From: an uncultured delta proteobacterium
Lineage (GTDB): Bacteria; Myxococcota_A; Polyangia; Polyangiales; Houyiibacteriaceae
NCBI GenBank assembly: GCA_963768985.1
Contig: CAVYJZ010000006.1
Location: forward strand, 333,702-397,701
Length of the DNA stretch: 64,000 nt
Reading direction: 5' to 3'
Shown: positions 7,206-59,479 of the stretch, one piece after another
Position numbering within the stretch: the stretch's first letter is position 1
Layout: each line of letters starts with the position of its first letter
The notes under the pieces: model-generated
The model's input: only the letters and a program-made list of their open reading frames with translations
Told to the model about the DNA's origin: nothing
The model's database searches: none
Position numbers and translations under genes: made by a program

Positions 7206-7324
7206 CTTGGAGGGGATCGTACGAAGACGGGGCCGTCGGTTGCGAGAAAGCCGCAGCACCTGGACAGGTCTGCAGTTGCAACGGGCGATCGCATCGAGTA
7301 CCCCGTGCGGCCTACGAGCAAGAA

Positions 7325-23948: not shown

Positions 23949-24293
23949 CTACTTGGACTCTTGCTGACTGGCGGCATCGATCCGATGCTCGCGATCGTAC
24001 GCGTGCCCAACGATGCCTTGCATTTGGTTCGAGACCGCCTCCGGAACCTTGGACACACCTGCGTCCTGTGCTGGAGGCTGTGTAGCCTGATTCACCTCCA
24101 TGCTGATCTTCTTCGTGATTCGCCCGGTCGCGGCGCTCACCTCGCGCCCGAGCTCCTGAGCTTCGTCGGTCTGGATGACCCGCATCAGGTGCTGAAACGG
24201 CGACCGCTCACCCAGCCGAACGAAAAAGAGCACATAGACCAGGAACGCCAAGACGGCGCCCGTCCACACCAGCCTAATCGATCGACGGATCAT
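23949..24293 (-). CDS. Small single-pass membrane protein, co-transcribed with the NtrC-family gene upstream
   Basis: 114 aa with TM segment IRLVWTGAVLAFLVYVLFFV. Its ATG overlaps the stop of 24290-25687 (ATGA). No known domain. Confidence 0.5.
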   Translation of the reverse strand: MIRRSIRLVWTGAVLAFLVYVLFFVRLGERSPFQHLMRVIQTDEAQELGREVSAATGRITKKISMEVNQATQPPAQDAGVSKVPEAVSNQMQGIVGHAYDREHRIDAASQQESK

Positions 24294-25687
24294 GCCTCTT
24301 CTCGATGGATACCATAGGCTCGCATTTTCTTGTGAAGGTTAGTGCGCTCCACTCCCAGAATTGTGGCAGCACGCGAGATGTTCCAGCTCACCTCTTCGAG
24401 AGTTTGAAGGATGTAATCCTTCTCCGCGCGGCTTCGATACTCCCGCAAAGTCAGCCGTTCGCCGGCCTGATCGAAGGTCGAGGGCAGATCCGAAGGCGGG
24501 GTCGACTCCCGACGCGCCTCGCTGAGAACGCCCTCCTCAGGCAGATCGTCGAGCGTGATCGTTTCACCGCTTAAGATCGCCATTCGCTCGACGACGTTGC
24601 GCAGCTCGCGGACATTGCCGGGCCACGGCCGATCCGCCAAAGCCTCGAGGACGTCGTCGTCCATGACCTTCTCTTTCAGGCCGTTCTCGATCGAGAATTC
24701 GCGGAGAAACTGCGCGGCCAAAAGTGGGATGTCGGTCTTTCTGTCCCTGAGCGGGGGGCTCACGATCGGGACGACATTCAGGCGAAAGTAGAGATCCTCT
24801 CGAAATCCCCCTTCCTTGACCTCGAGCTCGAGGTCCTTGTTGGTCGCGGCCAGCACGCGGACATCGACTGCAATCGCATTTTCGCCGCCAACCCGCGAGA
24901 TTTCGCCGCTTTGAAGAGCACGCAGCACTTTGGCCTGCGCGCTGGCGCTCATGTCGCCGATCTCATCCAGAAATATGGTGCCGCCATTGGCGAGCTCGAA
25001 CATGCCCTTCTTGCGGCCCTGCGCGCCAGTAAACGCGCCGCGCTCGTGGCCGAAAAGCTCGCTCTCGATCAGCTCGGCCGGAATGGCTGCACAATTGACT
25101 TTGACGAAGGGCTTGTCGGCGCGCGAGCTCAGCCTATGAATCGCGCGCGCGATCAGCTCCTTTCCGGTGCCGCTTTCTCCGGAGATCAGAACTCGCCCGT
25201 TGGTAGGGGCGACCTTCTCGAGCTGTGCGAAGAGCGTCCTCATGACGGAGCTCTCACCGATCATTTCGTAGCGGTGCTCGATGTTGGCACGAAGCTGCTC
25301 GACCTCGCGCTGGAGCTGCCAGGTCTGGAGTGCGTTGCGCACGGTGACCAATACGCGATCTCGGTCGAGCGGCTTTTCGAAGAAATCCGTCGCGCCCAGC
25401 TGAACTGCCTGCACGGCCTCTGCGACGGATGCGTGACCCGATACCATCAAAACGGGAAGCTTGCGAGTCTCTGGCTGGCTACGAATGTTCTGAAGCGCTT
25501 CGATGCCGCTCATTTTCGGAAGCCGAACGTCGAGGATGATGAGATCGACCTCGTTGTGTTCGAGAGTGTCGAGGCACTCCTCGGCCGATGCGGCATCCAG
25601 CGTATTGAATCCGGCACCTTCGAGTACCATCCGCAAGGTACGTCTGATGTTCTTTTCGTCGTCGACGACTAGGACTGTGGCCACCAT
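24290..25687 (-). CDS. Sigma-54-dependent response regulator (NtrC family)
   Basis: REC (VLVVDDEKN...IILDVRLPKMSG), [14 protein letters not shown] and C-terminal HTH (AATILGVERTNLHKKMRAYG). Confidence 0.9.
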   Translation of the reverse strand: MVATVLVVDDEKNIRRTLRMVLEGAGFNTLDAASAEECLDTLEHNEVDLIILDVRLPKMSGIEALQNIRSQPETRKLPVLMVSGHASVAEAVQAVQLGATDFFEKPLDRDRVLVTVRNALQTWQLQREVEQLRANIEHRYEMIGESSVMRTLFAQLEKVAPTNGRVLISGESGTGKELIARAIHRLSSRADKPFVKVNCAAIPAELIESELFGHERGAFTGAQGRKKGMFELANGGTIFLDEIGDMSASAQAKVLRALQSGEISRVGGENAIAVDVRVLAATNKDLELEVKEGGFREDLYFRLNVVPIVSPPLRDRKTDIPLLAAQFLREFSIENGLKEKVMDDDVLEALADRPWPGNVRELRNVVERMAILSGETITLDDLPEEGVLSEARRESTPPSDLPSTFDQAGERLTLREYRSRAEKDYILQTLEEVSWNISRAATILGVERTNLHKKMRAYGIHREEA

Positions 25688-26579: not shown

Positions 26580-27479
26580 TTACTCGGGCGCTAGCTCGTG
26601 GAGCGCCTCCTCCGCACGCGCTCGCGTCTCGCGATGCTCCGCAGCACGTTTCAACCAGTCTCGAGCCTTCCGCGAGTTGCCGAGCGTTCGGTAGCATTTG
26701 CCAATCGCGAGCTCTTCTTCGGGCTCGATCGTGGCGGCTTTGCGATCACGGTTGCGGCGTTCGAACGCTGCCACCTGTCTTCTGCAGCCCGCCTCGGCGC
26801 TGTCGGTTCCTGCTTGCTCGTCCGACGCGGACGGCGCGATATCGGCCTCCGCCACGGAGCCTGCCACCTCTTCAGCGGCGAGGCTCGCGGCCGGGGCCCC
26901 GCCCATTCGCTCGAGCTTCGAATCGTCCGCGGCGCGCTTGGCCTTTCGCTCCGAAGACGCGGGGCTCGCGGCCACCATCCTGGTTTTGGCCGACGCCCGG
27001 TCTACGCTCCGCGGCGCCGCCGCCGGTTCGGCTGCCGGCCGCGCTGGCGCAACCTCATGGACCACCACGGGTTGCTCGTGGACCGCTTGCTCCGCCTCGG
27101 CGGAATCGGCCGCCGATTCGGCTTGCTTCGATTCGGGCTGGTCACGGCGTTGGACGCCCCGCGGGATCGCGATGACCCCAACCCCAACGGCCAGAAGGGC
27201 AATCGCCGCCACGGCCCAGGGCAGGGGCTGCCCTCGCAGCTTTCGCACCGGAGCGACCCGGGGCACACGGCTGGATGCCGCTCGCAGGATCGCCGCATCG
27301 ACGGCGGCTCTGGGTTCCTCGATCGGCAGCTGCGCCGCCAAGGCGAGCGCCGCCTTCGTTTGCTCGAATGCGGAGCGACAATCGGGGCAGCGCGCGAGAA
27401 TCCCTCGCACGGCTTCCGGGTCGACCGCTTGGCGCTCGATCAGCTCGAAAATCTGCTCCTTGCACTCTTCACAGTTCAT
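26580..27479 (-). CDS. Anti-sigma factor (zf-HC2 N-terminus, one TM, periplasmic Ala/Glu-rich region with a TPR-like end)
   Basis: MNCEECKEQIFELI...ARCPDCRSAF zinc-finger motif, TM segment PLPWAVAAIALLAVGVGVIAI. It overlaps the stop of the ECF sigma gene. Confidence 0.7.
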   Translation of the reverse strand: MNCEECKEQIFELIERQAVDPEAVRGILARCPDCRSAFEQTKAALALAAQLPIEEPRAAVDAAILRAASSRVPRVAPVRKLRGQPLPWAVAAIALLAVGVGVIAIPRGVQRRDQPESKQAESAADSAEAEQAVHEQPVVVHEVAPARPAAEPAAAPRSVDRASAKTRMVAASPASSERKAKRAADDSKLERMGGAPAASLAAEEVAGSVAEADIAPSASDEQAGTDSAEAGCRRQVAAFERRNRDRKAATIEPEEELAIGKCYRTLGNSRKARDWLKRAAEHRETRARAEEALHELAPE

Positions 27480-28056
27480 TGGACTCTTCCAGGTCGCTCA
27501 AGATCCGCTGCAGATGCTCGAGCGCGTAACGCATCCGACTCTTCACCGTGTTGGCTGGGGCACCGACCACCTCGGCGATCTCCCTGAACGCCAACCCTTG
27601 AAGCTGGCGCAATAGAAAGACCTCCCGTTGCTCCTCGGGCAGGGCGTCCACAGCGCTGGCGATCCGTTGCCGGACAAGCCCGCCGTGGGCGATCGCCTCC
27701 GTGGAAGGACCGGGGTTCTGAAGGCGCTCGCCGAGCGGGTGATCCGAGCCGGCCTGAGCCGCATCCAGGGAAGCGTGTCCGCGGAACTTCATCTTCCGTT
27801 GGTGATCGATACTCAGATTTCGGGCGATCGTATACAGCCATGTGGAGAACTTGGCGTCTCCACGGAACTCGCCGCAGCGCTCGATAACCCTCATCCAAAC
27901 ATCTTGATACAGTTCCTCCGCGCGCCCGCGTTCGCGAGCCGATCGTAAAAGGAACGTGAAGAGCGGCCCGCGGTAGCGTTCCAGCAAGGTTGCAAACGCC
28001 CGGGAGTCCCCCTCGCGATACGCCGCCAACAGCATTTCGTCGGAGGGAACGCTCAT
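27469..28056 (-). CDS. ECF (group 4) RNA polymerase sigma factor
   Basis: The ATG at 28056 gives MSVPSDEMLLAAYREGDSRAFATLLERY. Region 2 (FSTWLYTIARNLSIDHQR) and region 4 (LQGLAFREIAEVVGAPANTVKSRMRYALEHL) are present. Confidence 0.9.
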   Translation of the reverse strand: MSVPSDEMLLAAYREGDSRAFATLLERYRGPLFTFLLRSARERGRAEELYQDVWMRVIERCGEFRGDAKFSTWLYTIARNLSIDHQRKMKFRGHASLDAAQAGSDHPLGERLQNPGPSTEAIAHGGLVRQRIASAVDALPEEQREVFLLRQLQGLAFREIAEVVGAPANTVKSRMRYALEHLQRILSDLEESNEL

Positions 28057-28216
28057 CGCGCGCCCCCCTCTTCCACGTGCCCGTGCTGCGTCGGATGACC
28101 ACACATCGATCGACGTCTGAGACTGGGAGAGGATCTACTCGATCGTACCCATGCAAGTGAAGGACAATTCAGAGGTTCTTGGCGATCGCCGGCGCGGAGA
28201 AACGCCCAGGCCTTCA

Positions 28217-28246
28217 TTGACCCGCCCGCCGGCGCTGCGGTATAAG
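28217..28246 (+). promoter_or_regulatory. Candidate sigma-70-type promoter for the 28307-38246 operon
   Basis: TTGACC (28217-28222), 18-nt spacer, TATAAG (28241-28246), about 60 nt upstream of the ATG at 28307, which is itself preceded by GAGGGGA. Confidence 0.35.
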
Positions 28247-28306: not shown

Positions 28307-29017
28307 ATGCGCAGGATCGTTGCGCTCTCAGTCGTGTCAGCATGCATCTGGGCAGGGGGGGCCTTCGCGATGGGCCATCATGCCGGCGCCGCCCCGCCAG
28401 ACGCACCAGCCGAATCATCGGAGGCGAGCCGCGAAGCGACGCCGGCCGCTGCGAGTAAGCCGATCGATGCCGGCACGTATGCGGTACGCCTCCGCGATCT
28501 CGAACAGCGGATCAACGAGCTCAAAGAGCAGATTTTTCGCTCCAAAGCCAGGCTCTCCTTGCTCGCCGAGACGGTGCTCGAAGGCGTTGTCGGAGGCGGC
28601 CAGGCGGTGATTATCCACGAGAACCGCATGTCCCAGTCGTACAAGCTGGTCAGGGTGGTCTACGCCCTCGATGGCGCCCCGATCTTCACCAAGGCCGACG
28701 AGGAAGGCACGCTCGGCGAACAACCAGAGTTCGAAATCTACAACGGAAGCATCGTTCCAGGGGAGCACACACTCACCGTCAACCTCGAGTATCGAGGGCA
28801 TGGCTACGGCGTTTTCGCGTACCTCAAAGGGTATCGTTTCAAGGTGCGCTCCACGTACACCTTCGCGGTTCCCGAAGGACGCATCGCAACCGTCCACGTC
28901 GTGGGCTACGAGCAAGGCGGTCCGACGACCCCACTCGAGGAACGACCAGCGGTTCGATATATCGAACGGGTCGAGCGGCAGGCTCGCCCCGATGCAAGCG
29001 GTGAGGGCGATCGGTAA
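28307..29017 (+). CDS. Secreted protein of unknown function, first gene of the Glt/Nfs-like operon
   Basis: 236 aa. Signal peptide MRRIVALSVVSACIWAGGAFA, a short coiled coil (LRDLEQRINELKEQIFRSKARL), then a beta-rich domain. Confidence 0.6.
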   Translation: MRRIVALSVVSACIWAGGAFAMGHHAGAAPPDAPAESSEASREATPAAASKPIDAGTYAVRLRDLEQRINELKEQIFRSKARLSLLAETVLEGVVGGGQAVIIHENRMSQSYKLVRVVYALDGAPIFTKADEEGTLGEQPEFEIYNGSIVPGEHTLTVNLEYRGHGYGVFAYLKGYRFKVRSTYTFAVPEGRIATVHVVGYEQGGPTTPLEERPAVRYIERVERQARPDASGEGDR

Positions 29018-31410
29018 TGCAACCTCGTGGGGCGACCGCGTCGCCGCCCACACCGACACTTTGTAGGGGGCGAGCGCAGAGGGTTGGGCATGGGATCATC
29101 CTGGCGCTCTGCCTGGTTACGTCCATTGCGCCGAAGGCTGCAGCACAAGACGCGGCCCCGGCCGATCGCGAGCTGACCGATCTCGAATCGGATACGCAGC
29201 GACTCATGGCCAGAAAGGTTCGGCCGAACGCCCTAAAGAGCGACACCTTCGTCGAGGAGCGCTTGGCCGACGGGGAGCTCTATCTCCGCCTGGAGGATTA
29301 CCTTCGCGCAGCGATTCTTCTCACTGACATCGTCGATCACTACCCGGGGCATCGTGCCTATCCAGAGGCGGTGTTTCTCCTCGGAGAGTCGCTCTTCTTC
29401 GCGGGCGACTACCTCGGCGCTCGCAAGCGCTACGCGGAGGTGATCGACCACGGAACCGACCCGATGTTCCAGCCGTACGTCCAATCGGCGCTCAGCCGTC
29501 TAATCGAGATCGCCATTCGCACCCGCGACTTTCGGAAAGTCGACGCGTATTTCCTGAGCGTGCAAGCGCTTCCGTCTCCCACGCTTTCGGTGACGACCGC
29601 GTACTTCCGTGCGAAGTACTTGTATCATCGGGCCGTCCCGATCGACGACGTGCTCGACACGCCGCCCGACGCTTCGCTTCGGGGCATCGACCAAGGCCGC
29701 CTCGAGCAAGCACGCGAGGGCTTCCTGACGGTCCCAAGCGGCACGGAGTTCGCCCTCCGGGCCAGGTACTTCGTCGGCACCATTTACACGCTGCGCGGGG
29801 AGTACCTCGACGCCATCGCTGCGTTCCATGCCGTCCTCGGCCAGGAGCCGGCGAACGATGAGGAGCGCCAAGTGGTCGACCTGGCTTATCTGGCGCTCGG
29901 ACGTCTGTACTACGAGACCGAGCAGTTCGACCAGGCGGTGGAGGCGTACCGGGCGGTTCAACAGACTTCGCCCCAGTTCGATCAGGCGCTTTACGAGCTC
30001 GCCTGGACGTACATCGGAATGGGCGACGCCATCCAGGCTGAACGCTCACTCGAGCTGCTGTCGGTCGCAGCACCGGATAGCGTGCTCAATGCAGATGGGA
30101 AGATTCTGCGCGGAGACCTCCTGGCACGCACCGGGCGCTACGAGGAAGCCGAGGCAGTATTCGATGAGGTTCGCGCCACCTTCGGGCCGATCCGCGACGA
30201 GCTGGATCGCAGGCGTCGAGAGCACCCGGACCTTCACGCGTATTTCCGGCAGCTTGTGCGCGAAAACTTGGACAGCTTCGACATCGACGATTTCCTTCCG
30301 GAGTCGGCGAGACCGTGGGTTGACCTCGAAGGCGACTACCAGCGGGCGCTGGACCTCCTCGCGGGCCTCAGCGAGGCCAGGCAGCTGGCCAGCGAAACCG
30401 AAGAGCTGGCGCAACGGATCACTGCGGTCCTCAGCGCTCCGAACAGGGTCAGCGTGTTCTCCGACATGCGGCGGCAGCGTGAAAGGACGACGGCGCTCCG
30501 CAACCGGGCGGCTCGGGTGCGTGGTACGCTCATCGACGCGGAGGCGCAGGGCCGGAGCAAGCGCGGCGGCGAACTCGACCGGGTGCGCGCGCGACGCCAG
30601 GAACTTCAAGCCGAAGTGATGACGATGCCCGTCAACACCGAGGACTTCGTCGATCGAGATTTCGAAGAGCTCGAGGAATACCGCAACGCCGAACGCAAGC
30701 TTCAGGCATTGCGAGTCGAGATCCTCGGGCTCGAAGCTCGCATCACCGCATCGAAGACGGGGCTCGCCGCCGTCGATCCGGGGAAGGTCGATCCGAAACT
30801 GGTGCGCGAGCAGCTCCAGGTGCACGAAGCGGAAGTCACACGGTACGAAGAAGATCTCACCTGGATTCGCCGGCGCCTGGAGGTCGGCCGCCTCCATACC
30901 GGCGTGGGTGACGCCAGGTACCAGGCCGACGACGTTCAGCGCAGCAAGTTCATCGGCTTGGTTGGCAGAGAGCGCGCGCTGGCGGGCTCAGGCGGACCTC
31001 GCTACGATTCAGCGTTTGCGCGAGTGACAGCCGTCGAACGCCAACTGGATCAGCGCGATGCAGAGGTGGCCTCGGCGGTGCATCAACGCGTCGCACAGAT
31101 GATGGAAGTGGTCGACGAAGAGACCACAAACCTCGCTCGCTATCGTCGGACGCTTCGGTCCTTCGAGGGGGAAACGGAAGAGGTCATTGGAGCCATCACC
31201 TATCTCAACTTCAATCACGTCCTCGATCGCTTCAACGACCTCATACTGCGAGCGGACGTCGGCAAGATCGACGTCTCGTGGGCAAGGCGTGAGGATCACC
31301 GTCTGCGAATCGACAGCCTGACGCGCGAGCGCGCGCGCGAGCTTCAGTCGCTCGATGACGAATTCCGCGATGTGATGGACCAGGCCCAAACCAGCGGAGG
31401 CGGCGAGTGA
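29017..31410 (+). CDS. Secreted TPR protein with a long C-terminal coiled coil (possible GltC/NfsC analogue)
   Basis: 797 aa. TAATG overlap with the upstream gene. Hydrophobic leader (GIILALCLVTSIAPKAAAQD), TPR-like repeats in the N-terminal half and a Glu/Arg/Leu-rich heptad-like C-terminal half. Confidence 0.65.
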   Translation: MQPRGATASPPTPTLCRGRAQRVGHGIILALCLVTSIAPKAAAQDAAPADRELTDLESDTQRLMARKVRPNALKSDTFVEERLADGELYLRLEDYLRAAILLTDIVDHYPGHRAYPEAVFLLGESLFFAGDYLGARKRYAEVIDHGTDPMFQPYVQSALSRLIEIAIRTRDFRKVDAYFLSVQALPSPTLSVTTAYFRAKYLYHRAVPIDDVLDTPPDASLRGIDQGRLEQAREGFLTVPSGTEFALRARYFVGTIYTLRGEYLDAIAAFHAVLGQEPANDEERQVVDLAYLALGRLYYETEQFDQAVEAYRAVQQTSPQFDQALYELAWTYIGMGDAIQAERSLELLSVAAPDSVLNADGKILRGDLLARTGRYEEAEAVFDEVRATFGPIRDELDRRRREHPDLHAYFRQLVRENLDSFDIDDFLPESARPWVDLEGDYQRALDLLAGLSEARQLASETEELAQRITAVLSAPNRVSVFSDMRRQRERTTALRNRAARVRGTLIDAEAQGRSKRGGELDRVRARRQELQAEVMTMPVNTEDFVDRDFEELEEYRNAERKLQALRVEILGLEARITASKTGLAAVDPGKVDPKLVREQLQVHEAEVTRYEEDLTWIRRRLEVGRLHTGVGDARYQADDVQRSKFIGLVGRERALAGSGGPRYDSAFARVTAVERQLDQRDAEVASAVHQRVAQMMEVVDEETTNLARYRRTLRSFEGETEEVIGAITYLNFNHVLDRFNDLILRADVGKIDVSWARREDHRLRIDSLTRERARELQSLDDEFRDVMDQAQTSGGGE

Positions 31411-34400
31411 ACTTTAGTCGCCCTCACCCCTCCGCAATATTTCTGGCATTCTTGGTCGGGGCGGGGTCGGGACTCCCCGTCCTTGTTTATGCGCAGGTGG
31501 CCCAGGATGCGGCGCCGTGGGCGGGTGCGACCGACGTCACTTTGCCCCCGTTTCTCCAGGACACGGGCAAACGCATCGTCGATGACCGACCGACCCCGAC
31601 GGAGAAACAGCTCGAAGCGCTGCGAGAGCTCGAAGCGGAGGGAAATCGCTTCATCGAGAGCGGAGATGCCTTCCGCTCGACCGTCACGTCGTTGGCGCGG
31701 CGCGAGTATCTCCAGCAGAGGCGTCGGCGCGATCGCTGGTACGGCGAGCAACTCGAGACCGAAGAACGAGCGTTGAACGACGCGAGAGAGGATTCAATTC
31801 GAGTCTTCGAAGAGTTCATTCGCCGCTACCCCGACCATTCGAAGTACACGCCGGACGCGATGTTTCGTTTGGGCGAGCTCTACTTCGAACGAAGCGCCGT
31901 GGAATTCCAACAACGCTACGACGACGCCCAAGCCGCGCGCGCTGCAGGCGATCTCGGCGCCGAAGACAACCTGCCGACATCTCCTGACTTCACGCCGACG
32001 GTCATGCTCTACAGGACATTGGCGGCCCAGTTCCCGAAATACGAGCGCTCCGACGGGGTCTACTATTTGATCGGATACACCCTGAACGAGATGGCGCGTC
32101 CCGAGGAGGCGCTGGCAGCGTGGCTCGCGCTCGTCTGCGCTAACAAGTACGAATACGATCCCAATTGGCGTCCACCGCCCGCGGATGCATCGCTCGCAGC
32201 CCAGGCCAAGTACCCGGCCTTGACGCTGGACGGCCGCCCCCTGGGCGCGTCGGTGGGCGGGGCGTTCGTCAACCCATACAAGGGTTGCGAGCCCATCACG
32301 CCGATGGCGCGCTTCGTCAGTGAGACCTGGTTCCGGATTGGCGAGTACCACTTCGACGACTTCGGCGGGCGAAACGCGCTCGATCTCTCCATTGCGGCGT
32401 ATGGTCGCATTCTCGAAAACCCCGAAGATCGAAACTACAACCTCGCTCTCTACAAGGTCGCCTGGGCATACTACCGTGCAAGCCGATACCCGGAGGCGAT
32501 CCGGCATTTTGCCCGACTGGTGCAGTGGTCCGACGACACGCGGAACGAAACTGGCAAGGCCGGCTCCGAGCTTCGTCCCGAGGCGATCGAGTATCTGGGC
32601 ATCGCATTCGCGTATGATGACTGGAACGAAAACCAGGTGGCCGATCCGAACGAGGGTCAGCCGACCGGTATCGAACGGATCCAGGATCCCGCGTTGCTCC
32701 CGCAGAACGCGCCATGGACACCCGAAGTCTACTTCCAGCTCGGGCAGGTGTACTTCGACGAAGCGAAGTACCCAGACGCGATCGCAGCTTGGCGGCTTGC
32801 GATCACGAAGTGGCCAAACAACCGCCGAACACCGGAAATCCTGAGCGACATCGCAAACGCCTATCAGATGCACAACGAGTTCGAGAACGCGATTCTGGCG
32901 CGCTCCGAGCTCACACAGTATGTGCAGGGAAGCACTTGGTGGAACGCCAACCTGGACCATCCGGCGGAGCAGCGAAACGCCGAACAGCTCGCCGAAAACG
33001 CACTCATCGTCACCGCGCTCCACCACCATCAGCGAGCTCAACGCCTGCGTCAGGAGTGCGTCGAGCAGCGCAACGTGCGGCTTTGTCGGGACTCGCGGGA
33101 GGAGTACGGACTCGCAGCGACGGCATACCGCGGCTATCTGGAACGCTATCCCAACAATCCACAGGGGTATGAGCTCCACTACAATCTGGCCGACGCCTTG
33201 TACTGGTCGAAGAGCTACGAGCAGGCGGCCACCGAGTACGCCGAAGTTCGGGACTCGAACGTCGACGACAGCTATCTGGCCGAGTCCGCCCGGCGCGTGG
33301 TGGAGTCCCTCAAGCGCATCGCCGACCGCGATGTCGAGGAGGGGAGATTAGTCGTACGCACCGAGGCCCCATCTCCGACCGGCACACCCCCATCCGTGCA
33401 ACCAGTCGCAATGCCCGAAACCGTCCAACGGCTCGCACGCGCCCGGGAGATCTACCTCACGCGCGTAAGCCCCAATCGCGACACGGAGGGCGTGCGCGCG
33501 GCGTACGATTACAACAATGCCTTGCTTCTCTACTGGTACGGATATTGGCCCCAGGCGGAACAACGCTTCACGCGCATCTACGAGGATCGTTGCTCGGGGC
33601 CGGAGGCGGACGTGACAGGCCAAATTTCCTGGGAGAACCTCCGTGCGATGGCGATGGCCACGAACGACTCCGAAGAGATTCGACGTCTTGCCAACGATAT
33701 TCAGCAGCGCGGCTGCACGTTCTCCGCGCGTGCCGAAAAGATAGACTGCAGCAAGCCCGCGAACCGCGACAAGCCCATCTGTCGTGCGGGCTCGGATCTC
33801 AACGCGCTCGTCTACCAAGACGCGCTCGACGTCTACAAGCGCGCAGGCCAAGCCTCAGGGGCCGAGCGACAGGCGCTCTACGAGCAATCGGCCACGATGT
33901 TGTTGGCCGCGGTCAACAGCAATCCGAGCGACAGGCAGGCGCCGATCGCCCTCGAGTATGCAGCCCTCGCGTTGGAAGCGACCAACCGATTCGACTCCGC
34001 CGCACAACTCTACCAGCGCATCATCGACGAGGTCGGACCTCGCAAAGCCCAAGACGCGGAAGAGCAGAAGAGCCTCGATGCAATCCTGGCGAATGCTCAC
34101 TTCAAGTTGGCCTACACGGCGAGCCGCAATTTCGACTTCGACCGAGCGGTGGAGAACTACCGCGTACTCGCCGACTCTCCGCGCTTTGCCAAGTCCACCG
34201 ACCCGGACCTCCAAAGCAAGCGCGCCGATGGGCTCGTCAATTCAGCGATTCTCCTCGAACGACTCCAACGCTACCCCGAAGCGACGAAGTACTTCCGTCG
34301 AGTCTACAGCAGCGTCGACGATCCCGAGACCAAGCGAAATGCGCTCTATCGGATCGCTGAAATGGCCTACGAGCAACAGCGTTACCCGCAGGCGATCGTC

Positions 34401-35243
34401 GGCATGCGCGATTTCATCAAGGTGTATGGCGACGATGGTGAAGCCGGCGAGCTGGTCGTGCTTGCACAGTGGCGAATTGCGCAATCGTTGAAGGCTCAGG
34501 GCAAGATGCGTGACTACCGCACCGCCCTCAAAGATGTCACGACAGCCTACACTCGAACGGGACAACCGGCGGGATCGATCGCCGCCAGTTACGCCGCCGA
34601 GGCGCGTTTCATCCTGGTCGACGGCGACCTCAGGAGCTTCGAGAAATTTCAAATCAGGCCTGGGAAGCCTAAGTCGGTCGACGCCTACATCAGCGCGATC
34701 ACGAAGCAGATCAGCGACGGAGGCAAGCGGGTTCAGTCGATCAAAGACGGCTACGAGCCGGTCTTTGCCTATCGGCGACCGGCATGGACGATCGCGTCGT
34801 ACGTCCGGCAGGGCCGAGCTTACGAGATCTTGGCACGTTCGATCCTGAACACCCCCATCGTACTGCCCCTCGATCTGCAGCGTGCCTTCCGTAAGGCCGG
34901 CGCCGATGAGCGAGAGGAGTACCAGCTCGACTTCGAGGACAAGGTCCGCCAGGTGCTCGACAACAAGGTCCGGCCCGTCGAATGCCTGGCCGTCGTGCGA
35001 TATGCGCTGGCCGCGCGGGCCGCTCGCGCGGGCAGCTTCGATGACGAATACACCCGCGCCGCGATCGATCGCCTCCAAGCGTACGGAGACGAACGCATCG
35101 CCGAGTGCATCGCAGAGGCACAAGCCAGCGATGCGACTTTCCAAGGGTACGTTCCAGGGGAATTTGCGCGTTCGCCTCGCGGTAAACCGTTGGAGATTCG
35201 ACCTGGGATCGCACCGCCTGCTATCAGCAAGGAGAAACAGTGA
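31407..35243 (+). CDS. Large secreted TPR-repeat protein, GltD/NfsD (AgmU)-like
   Basis: 1278 aa. GTGA overlap with the upstream gene. Signal peptide (AIFLAFLVGAGSGLPVLVYAQVAQD) and TPR-like repeats throughout. Size and operon position match GltD/NfsD. Confidence 0.65.
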   Translation: MNFSRPHPSAIFLAFLVGAGSGLPVLVYAQVAQDAAPWAGATDVTLPPFLQDTGKRIVDDRPTPTEKQLEALRELEAEGNRFIESGDAFRSTVTSLARREYLQQRRRRDRWYGEQLETEERALNDAREDSIRVFEEFIRRYPDHSKYTPDAMFRLGELYFERSAVEFQQRYDDAQAARAAGDLGAEDNLPTSPDFTPTVMLYRTLAAQFPKYERSDGVYYLIGYTLNEMARPEEALAAWLALVCANKYEYDPNWRPPPADASLAAQAKYPALTLDGRPLGASVGGAFVNPYKGCEPITPMARFVSETWFRIGEYHFDDFGGRNALDLSIAAYGRILENPEDRNYNLALYKVAWAYYRASRYPEAIRHFARLVQWSDDTRNETGKAGSELRPEAIEYLGIAFAYDDWNENQVADPNEGQPTGIERIQDPALLPQNAPWTPEVYFQLGQVYFDEAKYPDAIAAWRLAITKWPNNRRTPEILSDIANAYQMHNEFENAILARSELTQYVQGSTWWNANLDHPAEQRNAEQLAENALIVTALHHHQRAQRLRQECVEQRNVRLCRDSREEYGLAATAYRGYLERYPNNPQGYELHYNLADALYWSKSYEQAATEYAEVRDSNVDDSYLAESARRVVESLKRIADRDVEEGRLVVRTEAPSPTGTPPSVQPVAMPETVQRLARAREIYLTRVSPNRDTEGVRAAYDYNNALLLYWYGYWPQAEQRFTRIYEDRCSGPEADVTGQISWENLRAMAMATNDSEEIRRLANDIQQRGCTFSARAEKIDCSKPANRDKPICRAGSDLNALVYQDALDVYKRAGQASGAERQALYEQSATMLLAAVNSNPSDRQAPIALEYAALALEATNRFDSAAQLYQRIIDEVGPRKAQDAEEQKSLDAILANAHFKLAYTASRNFDFDRAVENYRVLADSPRFAKSTDPDLQSKRADGLVNSAILLERLQRYPEATKYFRRVYSSVDDPETKRNALYRIAEMAYEQQRYPQAIVGMRDFIKVYGDDGEAGELVVLAQWRIAQSLKAQGKMRDYRTALKDVTTAYTRTGQPAGSIAASYAAEARFILVDGDLRSFEKFQIRPGKPKSVDAYISAITKQISDGGKRVQSIKDGYEPVFAYRRPAWTIASYVRQGRAYEILARSILNTPIVLPLDLQRAFRKAGADEREEYQLDFEDKVRQVLDNKVRPVECLAVVRYALAARAARAGSFDDEYTRAAIDRLQAYGDERIAECIAEAQASDATFQGYVPGEFARSPRGKPLEIRPGIAPPAISKEKQ

Positions 35244-36547
35244 TGCGCTTGGGGGTATCGACGACCGTGTTGATTGGAGCGACGCTCTTCGCCACCTATG
35301 GTTGCAAGGAAGCGTCGACCTCCGGTCAGAGCGGGGGCGAGCCCACATCGGGTGGCGAATCGCCAGCAGGTCAGGGGGAGGGCGTCGTCCAGCCGGGAGC
35401 GGCCGGTTCGGAAACCGCAGTGTCTGCCAGCCCATGGGGGGCCACCCGCGCAGAGCAGTGCCGCCGAGAGGCTCGCCCGAGCATGTCCTCCAAGGCGAGG
35501 AAGTCATTCGACGAGGGGGTGCGCGCCGCGGCGAACCAGGACGATGCCTCGGCCGCGGCAAGCTTCCAGCAAGCTCTCAACAGAGAACCCAACGCCTACC
35601 CAGCACTCTACAATCTGGGGGTCTTGGCGGATCGCACCGGCAACGAAAAAGACGCGATCGCCTATTACCGGCGCGCACTGCAGGTCATACCCGACTACGA
35701 GCCGGCCGCACGAGGCATCGCGACGATCCAGATTCGGCGAGGCCGGGTGCAGGACGCGGTCGCGACAATCGAGCCGCTCGCTAACCAGTACCGTGCAAAC
35801 TTGGAGTTGCAGGCGTTGTACGCCGAGGTTTTGGTTGACGCGAAACGTCTGGACGAAGCATGGATGGCTGCGCGACGCGCGCTCAAATGCGACGAGCGCT
35901 TCGTGCCCGCGCTCATCGCCTTGGTGAAGGTGAGCCGCGCGCAGGGTCGCGAAGAGCTCGCGGATTCGATCCTCGAGCAAGCCATCCAAATCGACCCGGA
36001 TGTGGCCGAGCTTCACTTCATGCGAGGGGAGAAGCTCGAGACCGAGCCTGGGGAGCTGCGCGAGGCCATGGCTTCGTACGAGCGAGCCGTACAGCTGCGC
36101 CCGAACTATGCGGAAGCTCGAATGGCTCTCGGGATTCAGCTCTTGGCAGGCGGCAATTATCCGGGCGCGCTCTCGCACTTCCAGGCCGCAGAACGGCTCG
36201 TGCCGACGCTTCCGGCCGTTCACGTCGATCTCGGCGATGCATACCGCGCGACCAAACAGTGGACCGACGCTCAGCGCGAATACCGGCGCGCCTTGGAGTT
36301 ACAACCGAAGCTGCCTGAAGCGCACTACGGCCTCGGCCTGCTATTCCTCACCTCAGCCGGAGATTTCCCCGGGCTCGACGAGCTCTCTGCGTACGAGAAG
36401 GCGGTCCAGGAATTCAAGGCCTATCGCGATGAAATGGGACCCCGGTTGGCCAAGGATGATCAATCGGAGGAGTACCTTCTCGACTTGGACCGGATGATCC
36501 AACGAGCGAGACGCCGCATTGAACGTGAACACGGAGGCGCCTCATGA
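35243..36547 (+). CDS. TPR-repeat lipoprotein, GltE/NfsE (AglT)-like
   Basis: About 434 aa. AAGGAGAAA RBS, then GTGATG start region (35240/35243). Leader ends LFATYGC. Canonical TPRs (e.g. AYPALYNLGVLADRTGNEKDAIAYYRRALQVIPDYEPA). Confidence 0.65.
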   Translation: MRLGVSTTVLIGATLFATYGCKEASTSGQSGGEPTSGGESPAGQGEGVVQPGAAGSETAVSASPWGATRAEQCRREARPSMSSKARKSFDEGVRAAANQDDASAAASFQQALNREPNAYPALYNLGVLADRTGNEKDAIAYYRRALQVIPDYEPAARGIATIQIRRGRVQDAVATIEPLANQYRANLELQALYAEVLVDAKRLDEAWMAARRALKCDERFVPALIALVKVSRAQGREELADSILEQAIQIDPDVAELHFMRGEKLETEPGELREAMASYERAVQLRPNYAEARMALGIQLLAGGNYPGALSHFQAAERLVPTLPAVHVDLGDAYRATKQWTDAQREYRRALELQPKLPEAHYGLGLLFLTSAGDFPGLDELSAYEKAVQEFKAYRDEMGPRLAKDDQSEEYLLDLDRMIQRARRRIEREHGGAS

Positions 36548-36798
36548 AACGTTGGGTTTCGACCGCGTTGCTCGCGCTGGTGCTCGCTGCAGCATCCATG
36601 ACTGCAGCCCGCGCCCAAGATCGAAAAAAGCGTCAGCCGCACATCATCCAACTCGAAGAGATCGTCATCGAGGGCCGGGTGCAAAAGCCGAATGCGTTTT
36701 ACATCCTCAACCGGTCCAACCTGGGCTATGAAGTGCTCGAGCTTCGCACGAGCTTTCTTCGCAAGGTCGTTCGTAGCGTGGAGAAGGAACCGTTCTAA
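36544..36798 (+). CDS. Small secreted protein (84 aa), position-equivalent to GltF/NfsF
   Basis: ATGA overlap upstream and TAATG overlap downstream. Signal peptide MKRWVSTALLALVLAAASMTAARAQD. Confidence 0.5.
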   Translation: MKRWVSTALLALVLAAASMTAARAQDRKKRQPHIIQLEEIVIEGRVQKPNAFYILNRSNLGYEVLELRTSFLRKVVRSVEKEPF

Positions 36799-38246
36799 TG
36801 GCGCAATCGGAAACTCCGAGGCAGGGAACGCGTCCTGGCGCCATGACGATGGCGATGCAGGTTGTGCCGAGCAAGCACTCCGGCCCGAAGGTTCTGCGAG
36901 TCGGCCTGTTTCGGGACAAGAAGATCATCGAAGAGCGCATCGTGCGCCGCAGAGAGACCGTCTCGATCGGAACCTCGGCGAAAAATCACCTGATCATTCG
37001 ATCGGGGACGCTACCCTCCAAGATCGAGTCGCGATTCGAGCTCTTCCAGCTCGTCGGTGACGACTACATCCTGAACTTCACGGAGGACATGACCGGCAAG
37101 GTCGCGTTGCCCGGCGGAGTGCAGAAGATCGAGCACCTTCGCGATACCGGCGCCGCACGAAACGCCGGCACCCACTACCAAATCAAGCTCGCAGACACGT
37201 CACGCGGCAACATCCGCATGGGGGACTTCACCGTCTTCTTCGAGTTTGTCTCGGCGCCACCGATCACCCCAAAGCCGCAATTGCCTGCCGCCGTTCAGCG
37301 CGGGTTCATCAAGAACATCGACTGGACGTTCACCACCTGGGTGATCTTCTCGTACATGGCGTTCTTCGGATTCGTCATCTACATGGAAAACGCCGACTGG
37401 GAGGTCGACAGGGGCGTTCAAGAAGTTCCCGACACCCTGGCGCGGCTGGTCTTCGAAGCGCCGATCGAACCTCCTACGGTCGAAGAAGAGGTCGAGGAGG
37501 GCAAGGGCGAAGAAGAAGCCGAGAGCAAAGCGCCTCCGAAGAAACCCGCCAAGGTCGAAGGAAAAGAAGCTACGGCCACAGAGGCGCCAGGGGCGACCGC
37601 CGAAGGACGCGCGCGAATCGCACAGGAGGCTGCCGCACAGGCCGAGGCGATGCTCCTCGGGGCGCTCGGTGGTGATGGCGGGGCGCTCGGCGACGTGCTG
37701 GCCGGCGGCGCAGTGACGGGCAATGCGGCTGACGTCTTGGCGCAGGCCTCAGGTGTCGGGGTGGCGACCAAGAGTGACGCCGGCACGCTGCGCACACGCA
37801 GCGGCGGAGGCAGCGGACAGAAGGAGGGCCTGGGCTCTCTGAAAAAGACCCAGGGCGCCGGCAAGGCGGCTCGAGAAGGTCAGGCGGTCCAAGAACGCGA
37901 GGTCCGCGGGAACGTGGGGCTCAACAGTGGCGGTGACATTGGAGGCAGTGGCGAGTTCGATGCGGCGCTCGTTCAACGACAGATCAAACAGCGTTTGAAG
38001 TCGATCACCCGCTGCTACGAGTCCGAGCTTCGCAAGAATCCGAGTCTGGCGGGCAAGGTGACGATCACCTTCACCATCCAGGAGCGAGGGAACGTCACCG
38101 ATGCCAAAGCCAGTGAGAATACGACCGGTAGCCCTGGGGTCGCGGATTGTGTCACGAGAACCATCAGCCGGTTCCGCTTCAACCCGGGCCCCGAGGGAGG
38201 GAGCGTCACGTTCCGCTATCCCTTTGTTTTCCAGCCGCAAAATTAA
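36798..38246 (+). CDS. Single-pass inner-membrane protein with a TonB-C-like AgmX/PglI-type C-terminal domain (GltG/NfsG-like)
   Basis: 482 aa. The cytoplasmic N-terminal domain is FHA-like by eye. TM segment WTFTTWVIFSYMAFFGFVIYM and a Glu/Lys/Ala-rich linker follow. The C-terminus (ITRCYESELRKNPSLAGKVTITFTIQERGNVTDA...VADCVTRTISRFRF) has the Cys pair typical of the AgmX/PglI domain. Confidence 0.7.
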   Translation: MAQSETPRQGTRPGAMTMAMQVVPSKHSGPKVLRVGLFRDKKIIEERIVRRRETVSIGTSAKNHLIIRSGTLPSKIESRFELFQLVGDDYILNFTEDMTGKVALPGGVQKIEHLRDTGAARNAGTHYQIKLADTSRGNIRMGDFTVFFEFVSAPPITPKPQLPAAVQRGFIKNIDWTFTTWVIFSYMAFFGFVIYMENADWEVDRGVQEVPDTLARLVFEAPIEPPTVEEEVEEGKGEEEAESKAPPKKPAKVEGKEATATEAPGATAEGRARIAQEAAAQAEAMLLGALGGDGGALGDVLAGGAVTGNAADVLAQASGVGVATKSDAGTLRTRSGGGSGQKEGLGSLKKTQGAGKAAREGQAVQEREVRGNVGLNSGGDIGGSGEFDAALVQRQIKQRLKSITRCYESELRKNPSLAGKVTITFTIQERGNVTDAKASENTTGSPGVADCVTRTISRFRFNPGPEGGSVTFRYPFVFQPQN

Positions 38247-38292: not shown

Positions 38293-38320
38293 TTGACACG
38301 AATATCGTGCGGCGTATAAT
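38293..38320 (+). promoter_or_regulatory. Consensus sigma-70 promoter in an AT-rich intergenic gap
   Basis: TTGACA (38293-38298), 16-nt spacer, TATAAT (38315-38320). It is followed by AGGGGA (38333-38338) and the ATG at 38345. By hand count the 100 nt at 38241-38340 contain only 42 G/C. Confidence 0.5.
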
Positions 38321-38986: not shown

Positions 38987-40318
38987 ATGCGCTTCTGCTC
39001 GAAGTTAGAGCTTGCTCTGGCTTTGGGAGCCATCGTTAGCGCCGCATTGTTGCCCACGACCGCGGGCGCGCAGGGCGGATTTCTCGAGGACCGCGCGCCC
39101 AGAGAGGGCCCAGGCTTCAAAGTCGGGCGACTGGTCTTGCACCCGGGGCTCTCACTGCAAAGCGGCTACAATTCGAACATCTTCCTGCAGAGCAGTAATG
39201 AAGAAGGTGCGTTCATCTTGCGTCTCGAAGGGTATCTCGACGTCGCCACCGCGGGAGCGGTTCGGAGCGCCCAGGGCGAGGCGAACGCGGTCGAACCGAA
39301 AAAAATCGAGTTTCGCGGCGGGGTCGGAGGGCGGTATTACCACTACTTCAGCGCGAGGGTCGGGGACAACGTCGGTGCGGATGCGAACGTTGATTTCTCG
39401 TACAACCCTTCGAAGGTATTCAGCTTGCAGGTGCGGGATGAATTCCGCCGCACCATTCAACCCTTCTCCAATCCGAACACCACGTCGGGAACTACGATCA
39501 GCTACGGCCGCAACATCAACACCGCGTCACTGGCCCTCGTAGGGCGGAGCAAAAGCCAAGTGCTCGAGGGCAGCGTCGGTTACACCAACTACGTGCAGTT
39601 CTTCGACGCGAATGTCTACGCCTACGCCAAAACCATGTCGCATCACGTTCCGGTTTCGTTGAGTTGGCGATTCTTCCCTACCTCGGCCCTCGTCTACACC
39701 GCCGAATACATCAACCAGACATACCTCAATCCGGAGCAAGTCCTCGCCTCGCCTACGTCGCTGTCGAACAACAACAGGGTCTTGACTTTGATTGGTTACA
39801 ACGGTGCGATCACGGAGCGGACGATGCTCACTGCGATGATCGGATACACTGCGGGATTCTACGAAGCCGCCCAAAACTTCGACGACGTGATCGCCCGCGC
39901 GAACCTGAGTTGGCGGCCGCGAGCCACGATCGTGTTCACCACGGCCTTCGATCGCAATGTACGTCCCTCCTACATTGGAAACTACACCACGATAAACCGC
40001 CTTCGCGCCAGCGCGCGATTTACCATCGCCGGTGCGCTCGACCTTGGCGTGAGCGCGTGGGTGTCGTTCGACAAGTCAGGCCTGGCCCTGAGCCCAGATG
40101 GCGCACCACTGGGCAACCAGCTCAATCGCAAAGACACCCGCTTGCAGGCCGCCCTTTTTGGGGAGTACCGGTTCAAGGCCTGGCTCGCGCTCTTCGGCCA
40201 GATCGGCTACCTAGCGGACTACACGGGTTTTCGATACCTGGGAACCGGTCCGTTGATCGTCCCGTACGCGAACTATCAGAGGTTTGGAGCATGGCTTGGT
40301 CTTCGCGTCTTCTACTGA
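38987..40318 (+). CDS. Outer-membrane beta-barrel protein (Wzp-like porin partner of a short OPX; GltH/NfsH-like is the alternative)
   Basis: 443 aa. Signal peptide (LALALGAIVSAALLPTTAGAQG), alternating-hydrophobicity strands rich in Y/G/N/S/T, and a C-terminal beta-signal ending GLRVFY. Confidence 0.65.
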   Translation: MRFCSKLELALALGAIVSAALLPTTAGAQGGFLEDRAPREGPGFKVGRLVLHPGLSLQSGYNSNIFLQSSNEEGAFILRLEGYLDVATAGAVRSAQGEANAVEPKKIEFRGGVGGRYYHYFSARVGDNVGADANVDFSYNPSKVFSLQVRDEFRRTIQPFSNPNTTSGTTISYGRNINTASLALVGRSKSQVLEGSVGYTNYVQFFDANVYAYAKTMSHHVPVSLSWRFFPTSALVYTAEYINQTYLNPEQVLASPTSLSNNNRVLTLIGYNGAITERTMLTAMIGYTAGFYEAAQNFDDVIARANLSWRPRATIVFTTAFDRNVRPSYIGNYTTINRLRASARFTIAGALDLGVSAWVSFDKSGLALSPDGAPLGNQLNRKDTRLQAALFGEYRFKAWLALFGQIGYLADYTGFRYLGTGPLIVPYANYQRFGAWLGLRVFY

Positions 40319-40899
40319 TCACCGCGCTGCTACACTTGACGCTGGCCTCATCCGCATGCAGCAAGCGTGGACTGCAAGCCACGGAAGTGCCGCCGCCCGC
40401 GACCGACGACACCACGCTCGGCCCGGCTGATGTCATCACGGTCCGCGTCTACGGCGAGGAAGCGATGACAGGGAGCCACCAGGTGGGTCCGGACGGCACG
40501 ATCAGTTTTCCACTGCTCGGTGCCGTTCAAGTGAACGGCCTCGAGCCCACGGATGTCGCGGAGAAGATACAAACCGAGCTCCGAGAGCGAGACCTCCTCC
40601 GTAATCCGCAAGTGTCGGTGTACGTAGAGTCATACGCTTCGAAGCGCGTCAGTGTAGTGGGCGCAGTTGCGAATCCCGGGACGTTCCCGCTCCAGCCTGG
40701 GATGACGGTGGTGCAAGCGATCAGCATGGCCGGGGGGTTTTCATCACTGGCCGACCGAGACGGGACCGTCGTCACCCGCCGCAGAGGCAAAGAGATCGTC
40801 CGTTATAGGGTTCCGGTGGCACGCGTCACCAAGGGCCAAGCCGAAGATATCGAAGTCGCCGCAGGGGACATCATCTTCGTCCCCGAGCGCCTGTTCTAG
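40291..40899 (+). CDS. Polysaccharide export (OPX, Wza-family) lipoprotein, short form without an OM-spanning C-terminal helix
   Basis: 202 aa. Lipobox LASSAC. Poly_export/SLBB pattern (LGPADVITVRVYGEE...GPDGTISFPLLGAVQVNGLEPTDVAEKI...VSVVGAVANPGTFPL...TVVQAISMAGG). The start lies 28 nt inside the barrel gene. Confidence 0.8.
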   Translation: MAWSSRLLLITALLHLTLASSACSKRGLQATEVPPPATDDTTLGPADVITVRVYGEEAMTGSHQVGPDGTISFPLLGAVQVNGLEPTDVAEKIQTELRERDLLRNPQVSVYVESYASKRVSVVGAVANPGTFPLQPGMTVVQAISMAGGFSSLADRDGTVVTRRRGKEIVRYRVPVARVTKGQAEDIEVAAGDIIFVPERLF

Positions 40900-40908
40900 G
40901 AGCTCGGC

Positions 40909-46035: not shown

Positions 46036-46118
46036 CTCCCCCTCGTGCCCATGCAGTATAGGATGGAACTAACCCAGATTGCTTGGTCCGAGTCCACCCG
46101 GACGACTACCATGCCCCC

Positions 46119-55720: not shown

Positions 55721-55748
55721 CGCAAGAGGATACTCCAGAATCCGTACC

Positions 55749-59434: not shown

Positions 59435-59479
59435 CCGGCGTCTTTCGGGTGGGCACAACCCACCGCTCACGAGGAATCC

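Follow-up and report, generated by a model that had tools for sequence, protein, structure and literature searches.

Which member of the Glt/Nfs family of trans-envelope machines is encoded by an uncultured delta proteobacterium of the Polyangiales, and on what does it act? The question is raised by a stretch of 64,000 nucleotides (assembly GCA_963768985.1, contig CAVYJZ010000006.1, positions 333,702 to 397,701), here called the window, which carries a block of genes for envelope proteins on its forward strand. A preliminary description of this DNA compared the block with the gliding (Agl-Glt) and sporulation (Agl-Nfs) machines of Myxococcus xanthus. Based on the comparisons set out below, it is very probably the Polyangiales orthologue of another myxobacterial paralogue, the G4 group. 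That group was catalogued in 2011 and is uncharacterised (Luciano et al., 2011). What is new is the deep conservation, from Polyangiales to Myxococcus, of an extended block that includes two genes uncatalogued as Glt homologues, here named g1 and g7.

The core of the block comprises six genes at 28307-38246, encoding g1 and GltC-, GltD-, GltE-, GltF- and GltG-like proteins (Table 1). They are coupled translationally by five start/stop overlaps: TAATG at 29015-29019, GTGA at 31407-31410, GTGATG at 35240-35245, ATGA at 36544-36547 and TAATG at 36796-36800. These junctions and the limits of the open reading frames (ORFs) read as first described, but the original count of seven coupled ORFs was a miscount. 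Five junctions join six genes, and the next forward-strand ORF, g7, begins after a gap of 95 nucleotides, behind a candidate promoter that matches the sigma-70 consensus at 12 of 12 positions. G+C content by codon position indicates that all six ORFs are coding, the value for third positions (GC3) being 0.68-0.76. A simple hydropathy and motif scan finds an N-terminal hydrophobic segment in five of the six products, a lipobox-like TYGC at residues 19-22 of the 435-residue protein and a single transmembrane-like segment at residues 178-196 of the 482-residue protein. The scan supports the earlier statement that every product carries a signal peptide, a lipobox or a transmembrane anchor. A sigma-70-like element similar to the promoter candidate before g1 precedes the orthologous gene in two related loci (L001 and L004). 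No conserved promoter of the extracytoplasmic function (ECF) type was found 5' of g1, where the intergenic regions align poorly and the sigma-70-like element alone recurs. At the position equivalent to the g7 promoter, the related locus L003 has TTGACG-16-TATAAT.

Comparison with protein families confirms, at the level of sequence, that the cluster is homologous to the Glt/Nfs family. The best NCBIfam family is GltC for the 797-residue protein (NF033756, gliding_GltC; E = 2e-21, 76 bits), as had been suspected, GltE for the 435-residue protein (NF033758, gliding_GltE; E = 1e-34, 120 bits), CglF/GltF for the 84-residue protein (NF033764; E = 4e-6, 27 bits) and GltG for the 482-residue protein (NF033760; E = 5e-45, 154 bits). 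Because these are the best families, and because the AgmX/PglI C-terminal domain NF033768 is found in the 482-residue protein above its threshold (95.4 bits, cut-off 40), the relationship is considered real. However, the equivalog cut-offs for GltC, GltE, GltF and GltG are 450, 225, 90 and 650 bits, respectively. The Pfam matches among the six products are TonB_C in the 482-residue protein (30.6 bits, cut-off 24.6) and tetratricopeptide repeats (TPRs) in the 797-, 1278- and 435-residue proteins, as the preliminary description had it (with about 434 residues for the last). In the GltC-like protein the repeats fall at residues 78-390.

The domain structure of the GltG-like protein was examined with an AlphaFold2 (AF2) model built from 8 sequences. 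The model has a beta-sandwich at residues 30-152 (confidence score pLDDT, 74-92), a helix spanning 176-198, a disordered stretch at 219-385 and a folded alpha/beta domain at 389-478. In Foldseek searches the C-terminal domain retrieves TonB C-terminal domains (CTDs), among them FusB (7zc8; TM-score 0.69, root-mean-square deviation 2.1 A) and a Helicobacter pylori structure (6sly), and the model also retrieves FHA domains (3gqs, OdhI, MDC1). The predicted arrangement is thus a cytoplasmic FHA-like domain, a transmembrane helix, a disordered periplasmic linker and a TonB-C/AgmX-PglI domain. With it the protein keeps the "central FHA", transmembrane helix, linker and TonB-CTD that Cambillau and Mignot (PMC11761067) describe for GltG. 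No Pfam FHA match was obtained for the 482-residue protein, and the GltG model NF033760 aligns over positions 190-647 only, its positions 1-189 being unmatched. By these comparisons the protein differs from GltG and NfsG in having no N-terminal FHA domain. The fold of the C-terminal domain had been named beforehand as a point on which the preliminary reading could fail, and the structure comparison returns a TonB-C/AgmX-type fold. The TonB-C-like character noted earlier is likewise borne out by TonB_C and NF033768, and the noted cysteine pair, C406 and C451, is kept across 47 homologues. The GltG-like family extends far beyond the G4 clusters, with 528 representatives at E < 1e-30 after clustering at 50%. 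One member, a 450-residue protein with FHA-like, transmembrane and TonB-C parts (GCA_039794305.1, L002:10001-11353), is an orphan with no glt-like neighbours; its gene is flanked by thioredoxin genes and a gene for a PemK toxin.

Five Glt-type clusters have been described in M. xanthus, namely G1/G2 (Glt), G3 (Nfs), G4 and G5 (Luciano et al., 2011, PLoS Genet). Table S3 of that study gives sizes of 809-1111-490-91-447 amino acids for the G4 proteins of M. xanthus (MXAN_1923-1919), 785-1109-442-82-450 for Stigmatella (STAU_2688-2684), 802-1431-449-82-511 for Sorangium (sce5945-5940) and 823-1202-422-120-490 for Haliangium (Hoch_6494-6498). True GltG and NfsG proteins contain FHA domains and have 640-682 residues. 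The series in the window (29017-38246; 797-1278-435-84-482) has the C-D-E-F-G order and the size pattern of the G4 clusters. What the preliminary description took for a reduced or non-canonical architecture is therefore the standard architecture of this paralogue group, and the two leading genes that it called extra are standard G4 parts, conserved in the Myxococcus and Stigmatella loci.

For direct comparison, a WzaB query was used to retrieve the G4 loci of Myxococcus sp. Y35 and Stigmatella aurantiaca DW4/3-1, in which the genes have the lengths given in Table S3. In blastp searches of these loci, the best match of all nine window proteins (9/9) is the protein at the collinear position. The best-conserved member of the block is g1, with 60% identity to the Y35 protein and 54% to that of Stigmatella over about 165 aligned residues (blastp E = 1e-66 and 1e-63; hhalign 100%), and 70-75% among Polyangiales. 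Its Myxococcus orthologue lies between mglA and the gene for the GltC-like protein (MXAN_1924 by position). No Pfam or NCBIfam match was found for g1, a profile search of the PDB gave nothing meaningful, and the single-sequence AF2 model is unusable (pLDDT 42). All other proteins of the block share 24-46% identity with their Myxococcus and Stigmatella counterparts. Specifically, the GltC-like protein is 28% identical over 753 residues to the 809-residue Myxococcus protein (E = 5e-61). The GltD-like protein is 28% identical over 1247 residues to the 1111-residue protein of Y35 (E = 4e-100), and 28% identical to the 1109-residue protein of S. aurantiaca, which by organism, length and neighbours is STAU_2687, a listed GltD homologue (Luciano et al., 2011). 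Identities are 31-33% for the GltE-like protein, 44-46% for the GltF-like protein (against the 91-residue Myxococcus and 82-residue Stigmatella proteins) and 33-34% over about 460 residues for the GltG-like protein (against the 447- and 450-residue G4 proteins; E = 1e-53). As a control, the Myxococcus G4 proteins themselves score 66.5, 119.9, 32.0 and 159.1 bits on the GltC, GltE, GltF and GltG equivalog models, nearly the same as the window proteins (76, 120, 27 and 154). The window cluster is therefore as distant from Glt as a known G4 paralogue is. Thus the proposed correspondence to gltD-G or nfsD-G stands as family homology but not as orthology, since the scores fall far below the cut-offs and the best matches are collinear in G4.

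A reduced core of the Agl-Glt gliding motor, driving surface motility in the host, would be another way to read these matches. The Polyangiales are gliding bacteria, and among the NCBIfam families those of the gliding proteins GltC, GltE, GltF and GltG score highest. However, all scores lie 3-6 fold under the equivalog cut-offs, at the level of the Myxococcus G4 paralogues, which do not serve motility. The N-terminal FHA domain is missing, and no GltH, GltI or GltJ gene adjoins the cluster. In M. xanthus an MXAN_1922 mutant glides normally. Sorangium, moreover, has a better candidate for Glt in a separate cluster, where GltG (681 residues) contains an FHA domain and GltI-like genes are present. 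A gliding motor is accordingly very unlikely.

Further evidence comes from the genes that follow the core. The preliminary description missed one of them, the gene for an outer-membrane polysaccharide export (OPX) lipoprotein, and left the beta-barrel gene before it unrecognised; both belong to a conserved block with g7. The g7 product is 30-32% identical to its Myxococcus and Stigmatella counterparts (E = 6e-14), with no family match in Pfam or NCBIfam. Against a profile of the barrels encoded 5' of WzaB in Cystobacterineae, the 443-residue barrel gives an hhalign probability of 99.9% (E = 2e-33, 389 columns), with 24-27% pairwise identity to the Myxococcus and Stigmatella proteins. It was also considered as a counterpart of GltA, GltB or GltH and rejected, being WzpB-like by the profile match. 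The best PDB match of the OPX protein is 9n9a_A (E = 2e-34). This is WzaB (MXAN_1915), because the 9n9a sequence is 100% identical to an M. xanthus locus; the WzaB crystal structure was reported in 2026. Identity to the Myxococcus and Stigmatella counterparts is 39-42% (42% to Myxococcus WzaB). Only residues 95-231 of the 359 residues of Escherichia coli Wza are matched, so the protein is assigned to Class 3, the OPX proteins without an outer-membrane helix, and the motif scan finds a lipobox-like SSAC. The pair consists of a short OPX lipoprotein without a membrane-spanning helix beside a barrel recognised by profile, as in Class-3 OPX/beta-barrel systems, in which the partner is a PgaA-like 18-strand barrel. 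In M. xanthus, wzaB starts 23 bp downstream of the porin gene wzpB (MXAN_1916), and WzaB binds WzpB through a C-terminal Phe-Phe motif and WzcB through a twin-arginine motif. The window protein ends in ERLF and has L-R-N where WzaB has V-R-R, by a HMMER alignment in which residue numbering is approximate.

The gene order of M. xanthus, on one strand, is mglB(1926)-mglA(1925)-1924-G4(1923-1919)-1918-1917-wzpB(1916)-wzaB(1915), and the window reproduces it from 1924 to 1915 with the exception of 1918, which encodes a cyclic nucleotide monophosphate (cNMP)-binding protein. The association is widespread. A genome scan anchored on WzaB yielded loci in 77 species. Where the DNA upstream reaches far enough, the same strand carries g7 upstream of wzaB in 62 of 62 loci, a GltG-like gene in 56 of 58, and GltF-, GltE- and GltD-like genes in 48 of 54, 47 of 53 and 43 of 49. 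The remainder of the M. xanthus cluster for the biosurfactant polysaccharide (BPS) is 1.02 Mbp from wzpB-wzaB, and what has remained beside wzaB is G4. Homologues of the 1278-residue protein at 56-88% identity are all from Polyangiales/Myxococcota metagenome-assembled genomes and Sandaracinus-like genomes. Three Polyangiales relatives (about 57% identity) share the order of divergent ECF sigma and anti-sigma genes, g1, and GltC-, GltD-, GltE-, GltF- and GltG-like genes, followed by a barrel of about 445 residues, a Poly_export/SLBB protein of about 194 residues and polysaccharide genes. The small-gene content of the block is variable: between the GltE-like and GltG-like genes, L001 (15429-16556) and L003 (15739-16368) have an additional small ORF or two (80, 180 or 209 amino acids), and in L001 the g7 homologue follows the barrel gene instead of preceding it. 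In the open-access literature, to which the search was confined, the sole paper to name MXAN_1922 is Luciano et al. (2011), MXAN_1918-1921, MXAN_1923 and MXAN_1924 appear nowhere, and no mention of Glt-like genes was found in work on OPX proteins. The supplements of one OPX paper have no entries for the Sorangium and Haliangium locus tags adjoining their G4 clusters.

The downstream genes also bear on the possibility that the block is the counterpart of the Nfs machine for spore-coat assembly. Its contiguous C-D-E-F-G order is that of nfsC-G, and a link to a secreted polysaccharide recalls Nfs and the Exo/major spore coat (MASC) polymer. By architecture, however, the NfsA and NfsB barrels upstream, NfsH downstream and the 682-residue FHA/TonB protein NfsG are all absent here. 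In addition, the collinear Myxococcus partners are MXAN_1915-1924 and not MXAN_3371-3378, and in the comparison with PDB sequences the OPX protein has its match in WzaB, a component of the BPS pathway. An Nfs counterpart can hardly be expected on this evidence.

A periplasm-spanning machine of this family would need a motor. In the Pfam search of about 58 window ORFs, no MotA, ExbB or ExbD domain was found. Three small same-strand genes at 60.6-62.4 kb were considered as TolQR/ExbBD genes and rejected, being trmD, an RNA methyltransferase gene and rplS. In every Myxococcales genome listed by Luciano et al. (2011), aglRQS forms a separate cluster. Likewise, no motor is encoded in the nfsA-H cluster, and Nfs associates with the motor AglRQS. 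For these reasons a motor missing from the window is normal for myxobacteria. The earlier observation that a motor and GltA/B/K, GltI and GltJ counterparts are absent from the 64 kb holds, but its interpretation as a non-canonical trait does not, because an unlinked motor is the rule in Myxococcales.

Motor coupling, the architecture of the complex and its cargo may be sketched by analogy with the gliding machine, in which the central FHA domain and transmembrane helix of GltG are predicted to bind an AglR pentamer and the GltG linker wraps around GltD (PMC11761067). Likewise, the membrane-proximal FHA-like domain and transmembrane helix of the GltG-like protein would dock on a proton channel of the TolQR/AglRQS type (a TolQ-type pentamer) encoded elsewhere, and proton flow through this channel would drive conformational work. 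The disordered linker and TonB-C domain would grip the GltD-like scaffold and pass the work on. The GltF-like protein could add a strand to the TonB-C sheet and bridge to the GltC-like protein, and the GltE-like protein could bind the C-terminal part of the GltD-like protein; together these three would extend the scaffold toward the outer membrane. At that end g7 and the WzpB/WzaB-like translocon would replace the gliding-specific GltA/B/H/K and CglB. Overall, proton-motive force would be converted into mechanical work at the cell surface.

The favoured cargo or partner of such a machine, again by analogy, would be an acidic polysaccharide of the BPS type or its export pore. This role is preferred because g7 and the WzpB/WzaB pair are conserved neighbours, g1 is the most constrained protein and Nfs, with its spore-coat glycan, offers a parallel. 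That G4 is a motor-coupled partner of a BPS-type secretion pathway is proposed tentatively, as a possibility with somewhat less than an even chance of being correct. In this view the TPR scaffold, driven by protons, would either act on the Class-3 OPX/porin translocon, by positioning, gating or moving it, or spread the acidic polymer over the surface, and g1 and g7 would serve as adaptors. If this is true, all three myxobacterial machines of the Glt family have a secreted glycan of their own, namely slime for Glt, the spore coat for Nfs and BPS for G4. No function has been assigned to the G4 and G5 paralogues since 2011, and synteny supplies a concrete candidate cargo for G4. The proposal is relevant, too, to the question of how systems of Class 3, the most widespread class of OPX proteins, work across the periplasm.

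Several points weigh against this proposal or the assignment on which it builds. The orthology to G4 is drawn from synteny, architecture and patterns of hidden Markov model (HMM) scores, with Nfs set apart by architecture alone, and the suggested cargo comes from synteny only. No motor gene is linked to the block, and members of the GltG-like family are in part orphans, away from glt-like clusters. The promoter before g7 suggests that a second transcription unit starts there. A polar insertion in MXAN_1922 had no appreciable effect on motility, with wild-type gliding and twitching, and a polar mutation in the gltD homologue of G5 did not affect motility either (Luciano et al., 2011). Mutants of the BPS pathway show swarm phenotypes, and none is reported for the polar MXAN_1922 mutant, so that BPS export in the laboratory can probably proceed without G4. 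Finally, WzaB, WzpB and WzcB are described as a complete, self-sufficient trans-envelope route without G4 proteins.

The candidate promoter between the two gene blocks, the MXAN_1922 phenotype and the published completeness of the BPS route would all be expected if the adjacency to the translocon were simply inherited gene order and the G4-type complex acted on a protein or lipid cargo, on envelope integrity or in a process linked to polarity. In Cystobacterineae, mglB and mglA lie directly 5' of G4 on the same strand (L082:5656-6734 in Myxococcus sp. Y35; L083:5607-6685 in S. aurantiaca), encoding a Robl_LC7 protein of 159 residues and an Arf-type GTPase of 195 residues (MXAN_1926/1925). Moreover, protein or lipid cargoes have been proposed for other paralogues (Wartel et al.). 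On the other hand, the same-strand order has been kept from Polyangiales to Cystobacterineae while all proteins but g1 drifted to 24-46% identity, wzpB-wzaB has stayed beside G4 in M. xanthus at a distance from the remaining BPS genes, and both characterised paralogues, Glt and Nfs, act on glycans. Inherited order has close to an even chance of being the explanation, and the block would then be simply another copy of a known, uncharacterised paralogue.

Convergent with the OPX gene is a set of sugar-nucleotide genes for a TviB-like UDP-N-acetylglucosamine 6-dehydrogenase (NF011729, 454 bits, cut-off 592), two epimerases/dehydratases and a WbpM/PseB-like membrane 4,6-dehydratase (187 bits for PseB), with Epimerase and Polysacc_synt_2 domains in the set. 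These genes point to an acidic polymer of amino sugars (N-acetyl-hexosaminuronic acid), which would fit a BPS-like product without proving it; BPS is rich in N-acetylmannosaminuronic acid (ManNAcA). The window showed no gene for Wzc, Wzx or Wzy. The stop codons of the OPX and TviB-like genes, at 40899-40909, are about 9 nucleotides apart, and no terminator-like hairpin is reported between them. On the other side of the block, the ECF sigma gene has equivalents in the three Polyangiales relatives (50-58% identity) and overlaps the probable anti-sigma gene by 11 nucleotides. The probable anti-sigma protein has no Pfam match of its own; its counterpart in L004 carries zf-HC2, with weak similarity (30% over 128 residues). 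Just upstream of this pair are two NtrC-type sigma-54 response regulators (22584-23933, forward; 24290-25687, reverse). A similar regulator lies near the cluster in L001 and L003 and may be a conserved neighbour.

Table 1. Features of the G4-type block and its immediate neighbours, in window coordinates.
Feature	Positions	Strand	Basis
Probable anti-sigma factor, Cys-rich zf-HC2-like N-terminus and one transmembrane segment	26580-27479	-	MNCEECKE...CPDC; transmembrane-like segment at residues 84-102
ECF sigma factor, divergent from the cluster	27469-28104	-	Sigma70_r2, Sigma70_r4_2, Sigma70_ECF
Sigma-70-like promoter candidate before g1, TTGACC-18-TATAAG	28217-28246	+	Consensus match; single match in the window
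g1, secreted protein, 236 aa (helix and beta-rich domain)	28307-29017	+	Collinear homology
GltC-like TPR protein, 797 aa, with Arg/Glu-rich C-terminal extension of about 400 aa (G4-type GltC)	29017-31410	+	NF033756, TPR
GltD-like TPR scaffold, 1278 aa	31407-35243	+	Homology to Myxococcus and Stigmatella proteins
GltE-like TPR lipoprotein, 435 aa	35240-36547	+	NF033758, lipobox-like TYGC
GltF-like small secreted protein, 84 aa	36544-36798	+	NF033764
GltG-like bitopic protein, 482 aa	36798-38246	+	NF033760, NF033768, TonB_C
Perfect sigma-70 consensus before g7, TTGACA-16-TATAAT	38293-38320	+	12/12 match, spacer of 44% G+C
g7, secreted Cys-containing protein, 200 aa	38342-38944	+	Collinear with the gene just 5' of wzpB (MXAN_1917 by position)
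WzpB-like outer-membrane beta-barrel porin, 443 aa, ending ...RVFY	38987-40318	+	hhalign profile
Class-3 OPX lipoprotein, WzaB-like, 202 aa	40291-40899	+	Frame reading; overlaps barrel gene by 28 nucleotides
Sugar-nucleotide genes, convergent with OPX gene	40909-46068	-	NCBIfam/Pfam; start codons approximate

Farther from the block, an ATP-binding cassette (ABC) ATPase, an ABC-2 permease, an ABC_transp_aux (GldG-like) protein and a DUF4340 protein are encoded in a row at 7325-10873 (forward), a layout like that of gldA/F/G-type transporters, and a polysaccharide deacetylase gene (6219-7259, reverse) adjoins it. An 870-residue ORF at 53249-55861 (reverse) has a GC3 of 0.75 and an unusually high second-position value (GC2, 0.58), with no Pfam match. 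A transglutaminase-core ORF at 55278-56417 (forward) overlaps its start, so the gene calls are ambiguous. A multihaem cytochrome gene with c554/c7-type motifs (57825-59456, reverse) adjoins the conserved ribosomal cluster rpsP-KH-rimM-trmD-(RNA methyltransferase)-rplS at 59480-62395 (forward).

Among known systems, the closest are the G4 clusters of M. xanthus, Stigmatella, Sorangium and Haliangium, which have the same C-D-E-F-G order, a GltC-like protein of about 800 residues and a GltG-like protein of 450-510 residues without an N-terminal FHA domain. Those of Myxococcus and Stigmatella also share the translational coupling and the flanks, with a g1/MXAN_1924-like gene on the 5' side and g7, WzpB and WzaB on the 3' side. 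They differ from the window in that mglB-mglA precede them (no MglA or MglB homologue was found in the window), in the extra cNMP-binding gene of Myxococcus and in a GltD-like protein about 170 residues shorter. Polyangiales G4 clusters, in contrast, have divergent ECF sigma and anti-sigma genes upstream and polysaccharide biosynthesis genes directly after them. The Agl-Glt system (gltD-J, gltK-B-A-C and aglRQS) has homologous GltC, GltD, GltE, GltF and GltG proteins and shares the central FHA, transmembrane, linker and TonB-CTD parts, predicted to bind AglR and GltD. However, the window proteins fall below all Glt equivalog cut-offs and are without the N-terminal FHA domain, no GltH/I/J, GltA/B/K or CglB gene lies nearby, and the outer-membrane neighbour that is conserved is instead a porin/OPX pair for polysaccharide.

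The Agl-Nfs system (nfsA-H) is likewise a single contiguous, motorless cluster, and the function of Nfs is tied to a polysaccharide for which a Class-3 OPX/porin pair is the exporter. In the window there are no NfsA, NfsB or NfsH counterparts and no barrel of NfsH size (200 residues), and the 5' gene g1 does not encode a barrel. Unlike the window block, the Nfs cluster (MXAN_3371-3378) is not adjacent to its OPX and porin genes (MXAN_3225/3226). The WzaB/WzpB pair (MXAN_1915, PDB 9n9a; MXAN_1916) has the arrangement of the window, a lipoprotein of about 200 residues with only the periplasmic OPX part, encoded directly after a barrel of about 420-445 residues. The window protein departs from WzaB in the Phe-Phe terminus and in the twin-arginine stretch, which reads R-N in an approximately numbered alignment. 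TonB-ExbBD and TolA-TolQR, finally, share with the block a single-pass inner-membrane protein, a long periplasmic linker, a TonB-C fold and presumed power from a MotA/TolQ/ExbB-type motor. Compared with these systems, the window has no adjacent ExbBD or TolQR genes and no TonB-dependent receptor gene nearby, and it adds a predicted cytoplasmic FHA-like domain and dedicated periplasmic TPR scaffold proteins.

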